Source: an uncultured Gammaproteobacteria bacterium
GTDB taxonomy: Bacteria > Cyanobacteriota > Vampirovibrionia > Gastranaerophilales > CAZEDP01
Assembly: GCA_964643065.1 (NCBI GenBank)
Contig: CAZXPD010000007.1
Location: 136-64,135 of the forward strand
Length of the DNA stretch: 64,000 nt
Reading direction: 5' to 3'
Below the pieces are notes generated by a model that was not told the origin of the DNA, searched no databases, and saw only the letters and a list, made by a program, of their open reading frames with translations. This document shows, one piece after another, positions 4,871-64,000 of this stretch; the stretch's first letter is position 1; every line of letters starts with the position of its first letter. Both the position numbers and the translations under genes were made by a program.

Positions 4871-7495
4871 GTGCCAAATTTAATGACGCAAGATTCTGCA
4901 CTTGAACATAATTATAATCGTGAATTCCTGAATAAAATTGCATTCGGGAATGCGAATGATGCGTTTATACTTTTAGAATCAAATGAAAACGGACTTTCTG
5001 AAGAAGACGTTATTAAAAAACAAAAACAATTCGGATTAAACGTAATTTCAAACAGCAAAGAAAAGCATCCGGTAATAATATTTTTTATGCTGTTTGTGAA
5101 TCCTCTGGCAATTCTTTTACTGTGTCTGGCTACAGTTTCTATTATTATGAATGACATCAGAACCGCAGTTATTCTGATATTTATGGTTTTACTAAGCGTT
5201 GTTTTAACGTTTATTCAGGAATACAGGTCAGGCAAAAGCGCCGATAAATTAAAAGCAATGATTCGAATATACTCAATTGTTAAGCGAAGAAAGACAAATG
5301 AGGATAAATACCCCGAAATTCAAAATGTACCTATTGCGGAATTAGTCCCCGGAGATATAGTTATATTATCTGCTGGGGATTTAATACCCGCAGATTTAAT
5401 GATATTAAATTCTAAGGATTTATTTATAAATCAGTCAACACTTACCGGAGAATCTCTTCCCGTTGAGAAAACATCCGATATTCAAAATACAGGCACCATC
5501 AGCCCCTTTGATTATGAAAATATTTGTTTTATGGGGAGCACAGTAGTAAGCGGCAGCGCAGTCGGACTTGTAATAGTCACGGGGCAAAAAACTTTTTTCG
5601 GTCAAATTGGAGAAATAATAGCAAAGCATCAAAAAATAACAAATTTTGACGAAGGAATTAAAAAATTCACTTGGCTTATGATTAAATTTATACTTGTTAT
5701 GGTTCCGCTTGTATTTTTAATCAACGGGTTCGGCAAAGGAGACTGGATTGAAGCCTTTTTATTTGCTGTTGCCGTCGGAGTCGGATTAACGCCGGAAATG
5801 CTTCCTGCTATCGTAACAATTAATCTTTCTCAAGGCGCTATTACAATGTCGAAAGAGAAGGTTATTGTCAAAAGATTAAATTCTATTCAAAATTTTGGAG
5901 CAATAGATGTATTATGCGCAGATAAAACCGGGACTATCACTCAAGATAAAATAATTTTAGAAAAACATGTGGATTTATTCGGAAATGAAAGTCAGAAGGT
6001 TTTCTCATACGCTTATCTTAACAGTTATTATCAGACAGGATTAAAGAACCTTCTTGACAGAGAAGTTTTAAAACATTCAGAAACTCATTACCCGTCGGCA
6101 ATTCAAAATAAATTCAAAAAAATTGACGAAATCCCTTTTGATTTTGTCCGAAGAAGAATGTCCGTTATACTTCAATCAGAAGACAATAAAAATATTCTCA
6201 TATGTAAAGGCGCCGTTAAAGAAATTTTTGACGTCTGCGTTAAAGCAGAAACAAAAACAGAAAAGTTTAACCTTGATAAAAACCATTTGGAAACTTTAAA
6301 CAAAGTTGTAGAAGAGTTGAACTCCGACGGGTTTAGAGTAATAGCAGTAGCTTACAAAGAGTTCACCGATAGTAAGAATTCCTACACCAAAGATGATGAA
6401 TCTGACTTAACGATGCTGGGTTATATAGCATTTCTGGATCCTCCCAAAGAAACCGCAGCCAAAGCAATGAATGATTTATCCAAACTCGGTATAAAGGTAA
6501 AAATACTGAGCGGGGATAATGACACGGTTACTAAAAAAATCTGTCGAGAAGTAAATTTACAGTTTGACAAGGTATATACCGGAGCGGATTTGGAAAATAT
6601 GACAAATGACCGCTTTTCAGCATCAGTAGAGGAAGGTTCTGTTTTTGCAAAATTGACACCCGAACAAAAAGCTAAGATTATAACCGCCCTTCGGCAAAAC
6701 GGTCACGTTGTAGGTTTTTTAGGCGACGGCATTAATGACTCGGCTGCATTAAAAGCATCCGACGTCGGGATTTCTGTTGATACAGCTGCAGATATAGCAA
6801 AAGATACGGCGGATATTATTTTGCTCGAGAAAGACCTTATGGTCTTGAGTAAAGGTGTGATGAGAGGAAGGCAGGTTTTCGGAAACATAATCAAATACAT
6901 AAAAATGGGAGCAAGCTCTAATTTCGGTAATATGCTCAGTATCATCGGCTCATCATTATTTTTACCATTTTTGCCGATGCTGCCAATTCAAATCATAGCT
7001 AACAACATGCTTTATGATATTTCACAGACAACTATTCCGACTGATAATGTTGATGAGGATTATCTTAAGCAGCCCCGAAAATGGGATATAAGTAACATTA
7101 CAAAGTTTATGTTTTTCATGGGACCTGTCAGTTCACTTTTTGACTATGCAACTTTTTTCAGTTTGCTTTATTTTTTAAATTGCTTCAACAACCCTGCATT
7201 GTTCCAAACAGGATGGTTTGTCGAATCTGCCGTATCTCAGATATTAATCATACACGTAATCAGAACTGCAAAAATCCCGTTTATTGAGAGCAGAGCAAGT
7301 ACTCCATTAATAATAAGTTCTGTATTAATTGTATTGTTTGCAATATGGCTGCCGTATTCACCTTTTGCCGATAGTTTGGGTTTCGTTAAGATACCGGTTG
7401 AATATTGGACAATACTGTCTATAATTTTGCCCTGTTATATTATTTCAACAACAGCGGTAAAAAACCTTATCGGCAAGAAATACAATATAATCTGA
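4871..7495 (+). CDS. mgtA: Magnesium-translocating P-type ATPase
   Basis: 874 aa with the DKTGTITQ phosphorylation motif, TGES, GDGINDS and MgtA-type N- and C-terminal TM topology. The ATG at 4883 is an alternative to the GTG at 4871. Confidence 0.9.
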   Translation: MPNLMTQDSALEHNYNREFLNKIAFGNANDAFILLESNENGLSEEDVIKKQKQFGLNVISNSKEKHPVIIFFMLFVNPLAILLLCLATVSIIMNDIRTAVILIFMVLLSVVLTFIQEYRSGKSADKLKAMIRIYSIVKRRKTNEDKYPEIQNVPIAELVPGDIVILSAGDLIPADLMILNSKDLFINQSTLTGESLPVEKTSDIQNTGTISPFDYENICFMGSTVVSGSAVGLVIVTGQKTFFGQIGEIIAKHQKITNFDEGIKKFTWLMIKFILVMVPLVFLINGFGKGDWIEAFLFAVAVGVGLTPEMLPAIVTINLSQGAITMSKEKVIVKRLNSIQNFGAIDVLCADKTGTITQDKIILEKHVDLFGNESQKVFSYAYLNSYYQTGLKNLLDREVLKHSETHYPSAIQNKFKKIDEIPFDFVRRRMSVILQSEDNKNILICKGAVKEIFDVCVKAETKTEKFNLDKNHLETLNKVVEELNSDGFRVIAVAYKEFTDSKNSYTKDDESDLTMLGYIAFLDPPKETAAKAMNDLSKLGIKVKILSGDNDTVTKKICREVNLQFDKVYTGADLENMTNDRFSASVEEGSVFAKLTPEQKAKIITALRQNGHVVGFLGDGINDSAALKASDVGISVDTAADIAKDTADIILLEKDLMVLSKGVMRGRQVFGNIIKYIKMGASSNFGNMLSIIGSSLFLPFLPMLPIQIIANNMLYDISQTTIPTDNVDEDYLKQPRKWDISNITKFMFFMGPVSSLFDYATFFSLLYFLNCFNNPALFQTGWFVESAVSQILIIHVIRTAKIPFIESRASTPLIISSVLIVLFAIWLPYSPFADSLGFVKIPVEYWTILSIILPCYIISTTAVKNLIGKKYNII

Positions 7496-14323: not shown

Positions 14324-14387
14324 ATATTTGTCAACATTTTCATAATTCTGTTTCCAAATTTCTCAATAAATGCTTAAATATTAACAG

Positions 14388-14589
14388 CTCCATGCTGTTG
14401 TCCGTTTTGATCCTACAAATTTTCAAAAGGGAGCTCTATCTCCGATGATATTGAAGTAAACCTAACGCGTATTAGGAAACGGAAAGTATCAGGGGGGGCA
14501 CCCACCTATCTGAGGAAGATAGGTTTCAAAACCTCAGCTGTATGGAGTGATTTTTTAAAAAAGCTTCCCATTTATACGGGAAGCTTTTG
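14388..14589 (+). ncRNA. Candidate structured RNA: a ~160-nt rod-like fold plus its own intrinsic terminator. The family is not identified.
   Basis: Closing helix CTCCAT/GCTG (14388-14397) pairs with CAGC..ATGGAG (14535-14547). A second helix GTTTTGA pairs with TCAAAAC. There is an internal 7-bp hairpin CCTATCT-GAGGA-AGATAGG. Terminator AAGCTTCCC/GGGAAGCTT lies at 14561-14586 with a T run. A TATTAA -10-like box lies at 14376-14381. Confidence 0.4.
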
Positions 14590-40932: not shown

Positions 40933-42303
40933 TTGAATAAGAAAATTATGCTTTTTGTCCTATTTTTAATTACCGGTACAGGGTTTACACCCTTTTACAG
41001 CTCATATGCGGCGCAAAATAACCCTCAAAACCGCCCTAAGACAGTTTCATCAAAGCAACAGGAAGCAATAAGTTACTACAACAAGGCTGTAAAACTTCAT
41101 TTAGAAAATCAATACGATATTGCCGTTATTAATTATCGCAAGGCTCTTGAATTAAATCCCAATTTTAATGATGCCAAATTTAATCTGGCAAATATTTATT
41201 TTATCAAAGCTAACCAATATTCCAAAAAAAACGATTTTGCACAAGCCGTATCTTATATGAACAAAGGGATTGCGCTAAATCCCAAAGCGTTAAACGCAAA
41301 GCACAATCTTGCGGTAATTTATTACAACAATGGCGTTACTCAATTCGATAATAATGATTTTGAGGGAGCATTAAAGTCTTATGATAAGGTAACGGAAATC
41401 GAACCTGATTTCACGGAAGCATATTTTGCAAAAGGAAACGCATATTTAAAACTCAATCAGTATGATTTGGCACAAGGCTGTTACAAAAAAGTTCTTGAAC
41501 TCAATCCTAATCACTCAGGCGCAAAAAACAATAACGGCTATGCTCTTCAACAACAAGAAGAATACACCGTAAACAAAAATCTTAACGAATTTCGAATTAC
41601 CGAACGAGCCCCATCGCAGCTGTATAATCTTGTCAAATCTGACACAAGGGTTGATAAATCCTTAATCAGCAGTTTATATACAATGCTGGATTTAATCTGG
41701 TCTGACCCTGACGGCAAAAAACTTCTAAGCATAGTAATTAACAAAAAAATTCCAATCAATATCACCCCTTCAATGACGCGAGCCAATGCAAAGGTCGAGC
41801 AAAAACAATACAAATTAATGGTTTACGGTATTATACCTTTAACTGTTTACAATGAGAAAAATATTTCAATCAATATAAGTCAGGACTATATAAACGAATT
41901 CAATGACACTAACCTCTCATATCGGCAGAGAATTAACAGTCTTCAGGTAATAATTCACGAAGTCTGCCATGCCGCAAAATCAACCTTATCAAAGACAAAA
42001 GATTCTCTCAGCGAAGAAATGGGAGCTTCAATCATCGGCTATAACATTTCATACAGAGTTCTTACGGGTAATCCAATGACAGAAAAGCAAATTGAAGATT
42101 ATTCCAAAACCATCTTAAAATCACTGCTTATGGACAGTCACCGCTATCTTGACGTATATAACGATTTTAGCGAACAAATGAACAGACTCGGCATTGTACA
42201 GCCTTATTCATACAAATATGCGAGCATTCCCGCCGTTTATTCACAAATCAGAAGAGACAAAGACACTCAAAGACTTGACACACTTGAAAAGATGTTAAAT
42301 TAA
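40933..42303 (+). CDS. Secreted TPR-repeat protein with a C-terminal HExxH domain
   Basis: 456 aa with a signal peptide (..FYSSYAAQ), about 5 TPR units and a C-terminal region containing IIHEVCHAAKS with a downstream EEMG. Confidence 0.75.
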   Translation: MNKKIMLFVLFLITGTGFTPFYSSYAAQNNPQNRPKTVSSKQQEAISYYNKAVKLHLENQYDIAVINYRKALELNPNFNDAKFNLANIYFIKANQYSKKNDFAQAVSYMNKGIALNPKALNAKHNLAVIYYNNGVTQFDNNDFEGALKSYDKVTEIEPDFTEAYFAKGNAYLKLNQYDLAQGCYKKVLELNPNHSGAKNNNGYALQQQEEYTVNKNLNEFRITERAPSQLYNLVKSDTRVDKSLISSLYTMLDLIWSDPDGKKLLSIVINKKIPINITPSMTRANAKVEQKQYKLMVYGIIPLTVYNEKNISINISQDYINEFNDTNLSYRQRINSLQVIIHEVCHAAKSTLSKTKDSLSEEMGASIIGYNISYRVLTGNPMTEKQIEDYSKTILKSLLMDSHRYLDVYNDFSEQMNRLGIVQPYSYKYASIPAVYSQIRRDKDTQRLDTLEKMLN

Positions 42304-42316
42304 ATATATTCACATC

Positions 42317-42343
42317 GTCATTCTGAGGCAACGCCGAAGAATC
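42317..42343 (+). repeat. GTCAT...ATC hairpin repeat, single copy in a 3' UTR
   Basis: GTCAT-TCT-GA-GGC-AAC-GCC-GA-AGA-ATC. It lies between the stop at 42303 and the terminator at 42440-42483. Confidence 0.6.
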
Positions 42344-56837: not shown

Positions 56838-56945
56838 GTCATGCTGAACTAGTTTCAGCATCGCAAGGTCATTGGCACGACCCTTGCGATTCCGTGTCAA
56901 GCACGGAATGACATCAGAACTTGTTTCAGCATCGCATGGTCGTCG
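56838..56945. repeat. Cluster of nested GTCAT...ATC-family hairpin repeats in both orientations
   Basis: Copies are GTCAT-GCTGAA-CTAGT-TTCAGC-ATC (56838-56862), the hairpin CGCAAGG..CCTTGCG (56862-56888) and an inverted copy GATTCCGTG-TCAAG-CACGGAATGAC (56888-56912). A degenerate copy repeats GTTTCAGCATCGCA(A/T)GGTC. Confidence 0.6.
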
Positions 56946-57039
56946 ATATATTGCATATATTTCAACCATTGCTTCCATACAAATAGTTAAATCCCCCTTT
57001 TTCTTATATACTTATTTCATGCAGTATTTAGGAAAAGAT

Positions 57040-57759
57040 ATGTTTGTAAGAAAAAGCCGCAGAAAATATAACGAATTAAGACCGGTAAAATTCACAAGAA
57101 ATTTCACAAAATACGCAGAAGGCTCGGTTCTTGTCGAATTCGGCGATACAAAAGTAATTGTTACGGCAATGATTGAAGACAAAGTGCCTCGATTTCTTAT
57201 AGATTCAGGACAGGGTTGGCTTACGGCGGAATATTCAATACTTCCCGGCGCAACCCAGAGCAGGGTAAACAGAGACAGGGGAATGCTGATATCAGGCAGA
57301 ACGCAGGAAATCCAAAGATTAATCGGACGCAGCCTCCGCGCTTCAATAGATTTGAAACAAATAGGCGAGAGAACGATAACGATTGATGCCGATGTAATAC
57401 AAGCCGACGGCGGAACGAGAACGGCAAGTATTTCCGGCGGATTTATCGCGGTTTATGACGCTCTTTCCAAACTCTGCGAAAAGAAGCAAATTGACTGCAT
57501 CCCGGTTATAGAGCAGATAGCGGCAGTCAGTGTTGCGCTTGTTGACGGTGAAATCCTACTCGATCCCGACTATTTTGAGGATTCCAATGCAATCGCCGAT
57601 GCCAATATTATCATGGGCGCATCAGGCAAAATCATCGAATTTCAATGCACCGGAGAAAAAAGCTCATTTGACAAAAAAGATTTATACAAAATCATAGACA
57701 CGGCTGAAGAGGGTATTTCGCAAATAGTAACGCTTCAAAAAGAAATAATCGGATTATAG
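57040..57759 (+). CDS. rph: Ribonuclease PH
   Basis: MFVRKSRRKYNELRPVKFTRNFTKYAEGSVLVEFGDTKV.., GRTQEIQRLIGRSLR, DADVIQADGGTRTASI. The ATG at 57040 follows AGGAAAAG. The track start at 56872 runs through the repeat cluster. Confidence 0.93.
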   Translation: MFVRKSRRKYNELRPVKFTRNFTKYAEGSVLVEFGDTKVIVTAMIEDKVPRFLIDSGQGWLTAEYSILPGATQSRVNRDRGMLISGRTQEIQRLIGRSLRASIDLKQIGERTITIDADVIQADGGTRTASISGGFIAVYDALSKLCEKKQIDCIPVIEQIAAVSVALVDGEILLDPDYFEDSNAIADANIIMGASGKIIEFQCTGEKSSFDKKDLYKIIDTAEEGISQIVTLQKEIIGL

Positions 57760-62958: not shown

Positions 62959-63110
62959 AATTCAAATGTAACATAAAATTCAAATTGAGTTAAGGGGGCA
63001 ATGACGACGAATAGAAAAAAGGAGCTTTTTAACCATTCGTTAACAGCCGCGAAAAGCATATATTCTTTCTTCAAAATCCCCGCGGTTATAAGGCGCCTTT
63101 TAGGAGGCTG

Positions 63111-63617
63111 TTATGGATTCAACACCGGCGGCAAACCGCGTTTAGTTCTGAAAAACTTTATGAATCCTTTTGCCAAGTCCCTGAGTGACGGCTTCTGTAT
63201 ATTTTCCCCTGAAGAGCTTTCGATTTTATAATGACCGACTTCATTGGAAAATTCTAATTTTAGCTTGGTTGTCATTTCTTTGCCTAATGTAAACGAACTG
63301 CTGAGCTGTTTGATGGAACTGATTGAATCAAAATCAAAATCAGCCATTCCCGCATGTTCTTTTAAGAAATTAATAAAACTGTCAAAATTCCAATATGTTT
63401 CGGGGTTGGGAATTAATTCTGATTTAGAACCTCGTTTAACATCATGGATTATAAGTTTTGTACCCGCAGGCAGGTTATTCAATCGTTCTGCGAACTTAAT
63501 AAACGCGGGTTTCCACTGCACAAAACCGTGGCTATAGGTTACAACCGGAATGCCCTTAAAGTTCTGAGGTCTAATCGCTGTATTATGATGATTTAAATTC
63601 CTGCTTTGCACCTGCAT
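63111..63617 (-). CDS. Hypothetical protein with the shared N-terminal module (MQVQSRNLNHHNTAIRPQNFKGIPV..)
   Basis: The internal ATG at 63617 is preceded by GGAG 9 nt upstream and gives the module-type N-terminus. The track start at 63686 adds 23 aa with no ribosome-binding site. Confidence 0.6.
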   Translation of the reverse strand: MQVQSRNLNHHNTAIRPQNFKGIPVVTYSHGFVQWKPAFIKFAERLNNLPAGTKLIIHDVKRGSKSELIPNPETYWNFDSFINFLKEHAGMADFDFDSISSIKQLSSSFTLGKEMTTKLKLEFSNEVGHYKIESSSGENIQKPSLRDLAKGFIKFFRTKRGLPPVLNP

Positions 63618-63744
63618 AATGTAATCTCCGTTGCTATATATAATGTTAAAGTCAGAACACGGCAAAACGTGATAGTCAATAAGCAAATTTTTAAGAAATA
63701 TTTACAGAATTTTGCAACCTATTTGCAGCCTTTAACGCCAAACC

Positions 63745-64000
63745 GTCTTCTTGAGCGACAGCGATAGATCTTAATATTGTTGTGTCATTCTCAGCCCCGA
63801 AGGGGCGTGAGAATCTGTCCCTTAACCAACACAAAACAGCTTCATAAAGCCATATCTCATCAATTGCGAGCGACCAAAGGCAGCGCGGCAATCCAAAAAT
63901 ACCCTTTATCGTCATTCTGAGCGCAAGCGAAGAATCTCATAATCATTGCCTCCAAAGAAAAAAAGAAATGTCATTCTCAGCCTCGCACTGGCGTGAGAAT
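63745..64000 (+). repeat. Array of at least five GTCAT...ATC-family hairpin repeats, truncated by the window end
   Basis: Copies lie at 63745-63770 (degenerate), 63784-63815 (GTCAT-TCTCAGCCCC-GAA-GGGGCGTGAGA-ATC), about 63857-63893 (variant TCAT..TTGC..GCAATC), 63911-63936 (GTCAT-TCT-GA-GC-GCAA-GC-GA-AGA-ATC) and 63970-64000 (GTCAT-TCTCAGCC-TCGCACT-GGCGTGAGA-AT). Confidence 0.65.

Follow-up and report, generated by a model that had tools for sequence, protein, structure and literature searches.

Hairpin repeats on a Melainabacteria-like contig as probable members of the CGTC-tagged REP/Ssn-related motif family

Results and discussion

The array of short hairpin repeats at 63745–64000 of the window (the whole 64,000-nt stretch of DNA analysed here) most probably consists of CGTC-tagged REPs, also called Ssn-related motifs (SRM), which are recognised as single-stranded hairpins by an Ssn-family GIY-YIG nuclease; we assign this reading a probability of about 0.8. 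The array is an ordinary new example of a described family with a characterised partner enzyme. Modestly new are the host lineage, the unit classes that the published motif misses, and the mixed head-to-tail arrays in a single orientation. We document the anatomy of the units, the covariation of their stems, a link between units and ssn genes that crosses phyla, and the absence of a link to RAYT genes.

CGTC-tagged REPs were defined by Di Nocera, De Gregorio and Rocco (BMC Genomics 2013, PMC3733652) as repeats with a CGTC, TGTC or CCTC tag, a stem of 8–9 bp starting with AT, a loop of 4–5 nt and a short tail with the consensus CCA. Their families CGTC-1 to CGTC-4 were found in Proteobacteria, Chlorobi, Bacteroidetes, Spirochaetes and Thermotogae, with head-to-head dimers predominant and head-to-tail dimers negligible (PMC3733652). 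Chenal et al. (Nat Commun 2025, PMC11893778) renamed these repeats SRM, a family that includes the Neisseria dRS3/NTS, and found ssn homologues flanked by SRMs across many phyla. The Neisseria enzyme SsnA, a single-domain GIY-YIG protein of family cd10448, binds the NTS (CGTCATTCCCGCG...GGGAATC) solely when it is single-stranded and cleaves it a few bases upstream of the hairpin, with no action on RNA or double-stranded DNA; the C after the palindrome is needed for binding and the three bases before it for cutting (PMC11893778). SsnA lowers transformation by motif-carrying DNA (PMC11893778).

Array units and further copies on the contig

The contig has 66,981 nt and corresponds to record L001 in reverse orientation (window x = L001 66775 − x). 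By sequence reading and folding as DNA, the interval 63745–64000 contains five units, all on the + strand, comprising three clean GTCAT-stem-ATC hairpins, one weaker unit (unit 2) and one decayed unit (unit 0). The sequence-only reading had counted at least five units at irregular spacing, and the start-to-start distances of 39, 72, 55 and 59 nt agree with its estimate. Its statement that each unit is bracketed by GTCAT and ATC is exact for three of the five and fails for units 0 and 2, which are mutated.

Unit 0 (63745–63770, +; (C)GTCTTCTTGAGCGACAGCGATAGATC) is a decayed type II unit that resembles GTCATYCTGAGCG-N-AGCGAAGRATC with point changes and lacks a stable fold (z +0.76). Unit 1 (63784–63815, +; GTCATTCTCAGCCCCGAAGGGGCGTGAGAATC), of type I, folds as DNA with −10.1 kcal/mol (z −4.9) and shows a tGTC tag, a 7 + 5 bp stem with a bulged G, a GAA loop and a 3' C, followed by the tail TGTCCCTTAACC...; a near-identical copy, tail included, is present in a second array. 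Unit 2 (63856–63894, +; CTCATCAATTGCGAGCG...GCGGCAATCC), of type IV, has a CCA-type tail, a mutated tag and a weak fold (z −0.8), and has a paralogue, CTCGTCGATTGCGAGCG...GCGGCAATCC, in the second array. Unit 3 (63911–63936, +; GTCATTCTGAGCGCAAGCGAAGAATC), of type II, consists of a cGTC tag, an ATTCT/AGAAT stem, tandem G.A/A.G, GC-GCAA-GC and a 3' C, and its class recurs together with its tail, TCATAATCATTG, at 42317. Type II units give the expected fold (in unit 3, 5 bp, GA/GA, 2 bp and GCAA) with a weak z (−0.3 for unit 3); the energy model, we assume, may under-credit sheared G.A pairs. Unit 4 (63970–64000, +; GTCATTCTCAGCCTCGCACTGGCGTGAGAAT; z −2.7), of type I', is cut by the window end, its final C being the next base of the contig.

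The array runs on past the window with a sixth unit (unit 5, GTCATGCTGAATTCATTTCAGCATC; z −4.2) and thus covers 63745–64047. About 2.3 kb beyond the first, at least six more same-strand units in the same orientation form a second array; a block of about 125 nt, made up of the type I tail and the type IV unit, is common to the two. In a scan of the window, the 12-mer GTCATTCTSAGC had three exact occurrences, every one within the array region, and 14 matches with up to two mismatches compared to 6.6 expected.

Three further copies stand apart from the arrays, in ordinary intergenic gaps of the window. A solitary type II unit (cGTCATTCTGAGGCAACGCCGAAGAATC; 42317–42343, +) starts 14 nt past the stop codon of the same-strand ORF 40933–42303. 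Two type III units form a tail-to-tail (convergent) pair between a DegT-type gene and the RNase PH gene: the left half (56838–56862, +; z −4.3) has an 8-bp stem, a 5-nt loop and the tail GCAAGG, and the right half (GTCATTCCGTGCTTGACACGGAATC; 56888–56912, −; z −5.2) has the same loop and inner stem as the unit that flanks the ssn homologue of N. aromaticivorans. The contig as a whole carries at least 16 units, none within long ORFs. As expected of SRMs, which are hairpin-forming inverted repeats of 20–50 nt, units 1, 4 and 5 and the three type III units fold with z between −2.7 and −5.2.

The units fall into four classes, each with its own stem and its own 3' tail, which have in common (C/T)GTC, a stem AT...AT and then C. 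A CGTC, TGTC or AGTC tag with AT...AT and C is found in 14 of 16 contig units, the exceptions being units 0 and 2. The invariant parts, (C/T)GTC, AT...AT and C, are the positions critical in SsnA mutagenesis.

Comparison with the described families CGTC-1 to CGTC-4 shows the same CGTC/TGTC tag, a stem starting with AT in all intact units, and no RAYT association. Type III units, with their 8-bp stem and 5-nt loop, fit the 2013 definition exactly, and type IV has the CCA tail, ending in ATCCA, whereas the remaining classes continue CTG, CTC or CGC. In contrast to CGTC-1 to CGTC-4, the host is Melainabacteria-like, both arrays keep one orientation throughout, and types I and II depart from the 8–9 bp stem through bulges or internal G.A loops and greater length (12 bp plus a bulge, and 5 bp + GA/GA + 2–3 bp, respectively). 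With SRM/SsnA systems the units share the 5' (H)GTC tag, the AT-initiated palindrome and the 3' C, as well as the character of directional intergenic hairpins of 20–50 nt that cluster around genes, and the window's unit classes are found beside ssn homologues, both from metagenomes and from a metagenome-assembled genome (MAG) of Melainabacteria. They differ in their stems (tandem-G.A CTGAG...CGAAG, CTCAG...CGTGAG with a bulge, and AT-rich 8-mers in place of the TCCCGCG type), in the lack of an ssn gene on the contig, and in the mixing of four classes head-to-tail in one array. The neisserial NIME is built of repeat units flanked by dRS3. As in dRS3/NIME, short hairpin repeats are clustered here and the short sequences between them are also repeated, whereas the unit sequences differ. 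Full-text literature searches gave no match to the unit sequences; the family is described there as CGTC-tagged REPs or dRS3.

The published SRM search sequence, HGTCWYN(0-2)YYVSBRHN(0-5)WNVSBRGN(0-2)RNCYNB, was derived from 29 genomes (PMC11893778). It has no match in the 66.8-kb contig and matches none of nine curated units; by hand check it also misses GTCATTCTGAGCGAAGCGAAGAATC, a member of the NCTGAG class and the commonest 25-mer among the IMG/VR matches listed. The search sequence is a search device and not a functional definition.

Stem covariation and spread of the family

We scanned IMG/VR with the pattern GTCATNCTGAG-N(5-12)-CGAAGNATC, in which both N positions are left free, and obtained at least 120 stretches. 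The free pair was Watson–Crick in 157 of 162 cases among the matches listed, and in 81 of the 86 distinct sequences among them, compared to 29.8 expected under independence. In an alignment of 46 distinct 25-mers, combined from the IMG/VR loci and from metagenome loci selected by their ssn genes, every sequence had a standard free pair; six pair types and 28 double changes were represented, and none of 500 shuffles reached the covariation score. The compensatory stem changes proposed from the sequence alone are thus confirmed, and the proposal of a REP-like hairpin family with fixed flanks is supported.

The covarying position was occupied by G-T in 1 of 162 cases among the matches listed and in 2 of the 46 distinct 25-mers, and GCGNAG(C) is the core usually found in the family. 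The GCGNAG(C) sequence forms a very stable DNA mini-hairpin. Because of this core and the near-absence of G-T at the covarying position, the structure is not specific to RNA, and the tandem G-A mismatches and GNRA loop, which had been taken as an RNA-like structural signature, are not diagnostic; the action of SsnA on single-stranded DNA, the antisense position of the array and the lack of a predicted terminator point the same way. A mainly RNA-level role, in which selection on RNA structure would maintain the units as 3' stabiliser, processing or terminator hairpins, is quite improbable. The position of the solitary unit at 42317 just past a stop codon would suit such a role, REPs mainly follow coding regions and could work as RNA (Di Nocera 2013, PMC3733652), and tandem G.A pairs with a GCAA loop are stable in RNA too. 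However, the array at 63745–64047 is antisense to both adjoining genes, no site resembling an intrinsic terminator was predicted in 63000–64000, and the earlier suggestion of transcribed stabiliser or processing hairpins finds no support there. Moreover, units flank ssn genes in mirror orientation, a symmetry at the level of DNA, and SsnA does not bind RNA (PMC11893778). Rfam gave no relevant match either at the gathering threshold in the whole window or at a permissive E-value in the extended array region, the weak matches being at chance level. A K-turn reading was dropped on the anatomy of the units. The sole Rfam match in the window is a 6S/SsrS RNA at 14384–14551 (+; RF00013, 58.7 bits against a gathering threshold of 46.4).

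The family is not confined to a few loci, which had been named as an outcome that would count against it: copies occur elsewhere in the window, in the IMG/VR stretches, on plasmids and in other MAGs. A short BLAST search of plasmids with the commonest unit found it in Planktothrix, Calothrix, Oscillatoria, Hymenobacter and Granulicella, that is, in cyanobacteria, Bacteroidota and Acidobacteriota. The type I pattern was found at 14 loci across the genome collection, one of them in a MAG with non-coding sequence 85–92% identical to that of the window contig. In one IMG/VR locus of high G+C content (L003), unit pairs lie between phage tail and baseplate-like genes, so that the family also populates phage or prophage genomes. 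The genes adjoining the 120 motif-selected IMG/VR loci (clustered, among the matches listed) were ordinary phage structural genes only, with no transposase and no ssn.

Homologues of HisS and RAYT point to a Melainabacteria/Gastranaerophilales-like host. The related MAG CAZEDP01 (L123, L127, L129, L133 and L136) has non-coding repeats in common with the window contig and is titled 'uncultured Gammaproteobacteria'; among named sequences, its RAYT is best matched by homologues from Melainabacteria, and the Gammaproteobacteria label is probably wrong.

Association with ssn genes

Loci were picked solely by homology to the GIY-YIG protein, giving 5 from IMG/VR and 80 from metagenomes, 67 of the latter extending 150 nt or more to either side of the gene. 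A unit lies within 300 nt of the ssn homologue in 66 of these 67. A same-strand unit is found upstream in 58, an opposite-strand unit downstream in 50 and both in 44, the typical layout having GTCAT facing outward on either side of the gene. The density of units is 6.9 per kb near ssn compared to 1.06 per kb further away (6.5-fold), and the ssn flanks contain 285 units compared to 34.6 in shuffles (8-fold). A strict detector, requiring at least five consecutive pairs from the T, misses units with G.A pairs and finds units at just 26 of 80 ssn loci; the counts given here use a looser detector with controls. The commonest class beside ssn homologues is NCTGAG (type II; 50 of 80 loci), and the GCTGAA (type III) and TGCGAG (type IV-like) classes also occur there, the ssn-flanking class comparable to the type IV unit 2 being GTCATTGCGAG; a type I-like unit beside an ssn gene was seen in a single case (L130). 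The association, recovered independently here, is already published (Chenal 2025, PMC11893778). Since the published pattern misses NCTGAG, the reported association of 71% may be an underestimate.

In named genomes, each species has its own variant of the unit beside the ssn homologue. Six GIY-YIG proteins are 49–61% identical to the Neisseria SsnA orthologue. The ssn homologue is flanked by dRS3/NTS in N. gonorrhoeae, by CGTCATCCCCGCGAAGGCGGGGATCC dimers in A. lipoferum, where the gene is placed between sufB and sufC, by CGTCGCCCCGTGCTTGACACGGGGC in N. aromaticivorans and by CCTC-tagged units in S. meliloti. On a Planktothrix plasmid, a 94-aa GIY-YIG gene lies between unit clusters within a DISARM operon, and a homologue 62% identical to its product abuts a type I unit in another MAG. 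A Melainabacteria MAG has its ssn homologue beside a head-to-tail array of mixed classes, which contains GTCATTCTGAGCGAAGCGAAGAATC and near-identical units of type II and of a type III-like form.

Tandem truncated 5' halves of units (GTCATTCTGAG plus about 11 nt, in two or three copies) often precede full units beside ssn (L144 14958–15215 and 15590–15800; flanks of L168 and L190), and could be a footprint of unit copying or repair. In Planktothrix, the slot between an MmeI/PglX-type gene and drmA holds the GIY-YIG gene in one strain (L144 14944–15860), and in two others (L230 2645–3797, L231 1867–3020) it contains a PIN-domain gene preceded by a small partner gene; its contents in every case adjoin tandem tail-to-tail (convergent) unit pairs. 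Comparison of Planktothrix plasmids gave no clean pair of an empty and a filled site, the slot being rearranged instead of carrying a simple insertion.

These data fit the following scheme. Once single-stranded during replication, repair or DNA uptake, the GTCAT strand would fold into a hairpin, and an Ssn-family nuclease (about 90 aa, GIY-YIG, cd10448) would bind it and cut the single strand a few bases upstream. The gene for such a nuclease typically lies between inverted units with GTCAT outward, and the many copies found elsewhere, the array in the window among them, are gene-less. No ssn homologue is present on the 67-kb contig, and the copies in the array are therefore non-autonomous; we infer that the organism carries an ssn gene elsewhere in its genome. 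The product of that putative gene may act on all four unit classes, and the arrays presumably arose by spread or duplication of units. In N. meningitidis, a change of the palindrome that kept the hairpin abolished SsnA activity (PMC11893778), yet four stem classes stand in one array here, which would call for several nucleases or a tolerant one, unless some units are relics.

Comparison with REP/RAYT systems

The sequence-only reading had suggested that the units might be mobilised by a RAYT-like transposase. That they are classical REP/BIME elements mobilised by a RAYT (Y1 HUH transposase) is highly unlikely. A GTCAT array in the related MAG is followed, about 180 nt downstream, by a bona fide RAYT gene (NF047646, 155 bits; cutoff 80), and the plan of a tag and hairpin with a gene between inverted units parallels REP/RAYT. 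However, this RAYT is bracketed by its own inverted GTAGGTTGGGTAAAAT... REPs and not by GTCAT units, and two homologues in other contigs are likewise flanked; the GTAG REP of the related MAG is absent from the window, and a search for a RAYT gene found none on the contig. Di Nocera et al. (2013) also reported that CGTC repeats do not flank any tyrosine transposase gene and that they have no dedicated transposase (PMC3733652).

The RAYT genes of the relatives (L123 4782–5410, L138 3948–4596, and L141 3897–4590 and 4700–4845) have inverted GTAGGTTGGGT(A/C)AAA... REPs, with more such REPs nearby. These GTAG (GTAGGTTGGG-type) REP/RAYT systems, found in relatives, indicate that GTAG and CGTC repeats coexist in the lineage. 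The two kinds of repeat are alike in the tag-plus-hairpin form, in the enzyme gene between inverted units and in the many gene-less copies. They differ in the tag, GTAG as opposed to CGTC, and in the enzyme, a HUH tyrosine transposase as opposed to a GIY-YIG nuclease.

Sequences surrounding the arrays

The ORF at 63691–63915 (−), which had been regarded as spurious, passes through the repeats and has no Pfam match, in agreement with that judgement. The long RNase PH ORF (56872–57759, +) begins within the convergent repeat pair. On the sister contig L002 (99.8% identical), the annotated gene is 44 aa shorter; translation probably starts past the repeats.

Immediately upstream of the array is a TTTGCAACCTATTTGCAGCC motif (63711–63730, +), an uncertain member of the feature with a single occurrence in the 64-kb window. 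The motif also precedes arrays in the contig extension (L001 about 430–570) and in the related MAG (L123 4385–4515 and, inverted, 6150–6185), where the two inverted copies enclose an array and a RAYT; runs of TGCANCC words accompany it directly upstream of arrays. Just past the array lies a non-coding module of about 400 nt (L001 2300–2650, or about 64125–64475 in window orientation; L133 4686–5103; L136 3176–3367), which is 85–92% identical in the related MAG yet has different neighbouring genes there. The module contains a hairpin followed by a T-run (GTCGAC...GTCGACCATATTTTCTGTTTT), has no Rfam match, and could be a non-coding RNA or a larger repeat module.

Between the two arrays, beyond the window, is an operon (L001 744–2245) of a Gp49/HigB-like toxin, an HTH_3 antitoxin and a 265-aa HEPN-domain protein. 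This arrangement bears on two further readings, namely that the units form an integron attC-like recombination array or encode a type III antitoxin RNA array for adjacent toxin/HEPN genes, both of which are extremely improbable. The two arrays do bracket the HigB-HigA-HEPN island, and the Planktothrix slot beside units holds different small genes depending on the strain. Against these readings, inspection revealed no GTTRRRY/RYYYAAC core sites, and the units are 11–40 nt apart with no cassettes between them. The units are also heterogeneous rather than identical tandem repeats, and the arrays are neither upstream of nor co-oriented with the toxin genes. No integron integrase or ToxN-like gene was seen next to such arrays in any of the loci examined.

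The HigB-HigA-HEPN operon between two arrays, and the Planktothrix DISARM slot, occupied in one strain by a GIY-YIG gene and in further strains by a VapBC-like pair, lead us to a speculation within the Ssn framework. Mixed arrays in one orientation might mark the edges of small exchangeable gene slots, where cutting of single-stranded DNA by Ssn at the arrays would block or drive the replacement of the selfish or defence genes between them; we consider this unlikely.

Implications

Recognition of these repeats has consequences for annotation. The arrays break assemblies (both the contig and its sister contig end in or beside them), create false ORFs such as 63691–63915, and extend the RNase PH call. 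Ssn enzymes have been proposed as site-specific tools for single-stranded DNA, and the differing stems described here point to further specificities.

If the arrays do delimit exchangeable gene slots, they would constitute a hairpin-bounded cassette system run by a GIY-YIG nuclease, and the tandem-G.A class CTGAG...CGAAG would be a separate specificity group that extends across phyla and was missed by the published motif.
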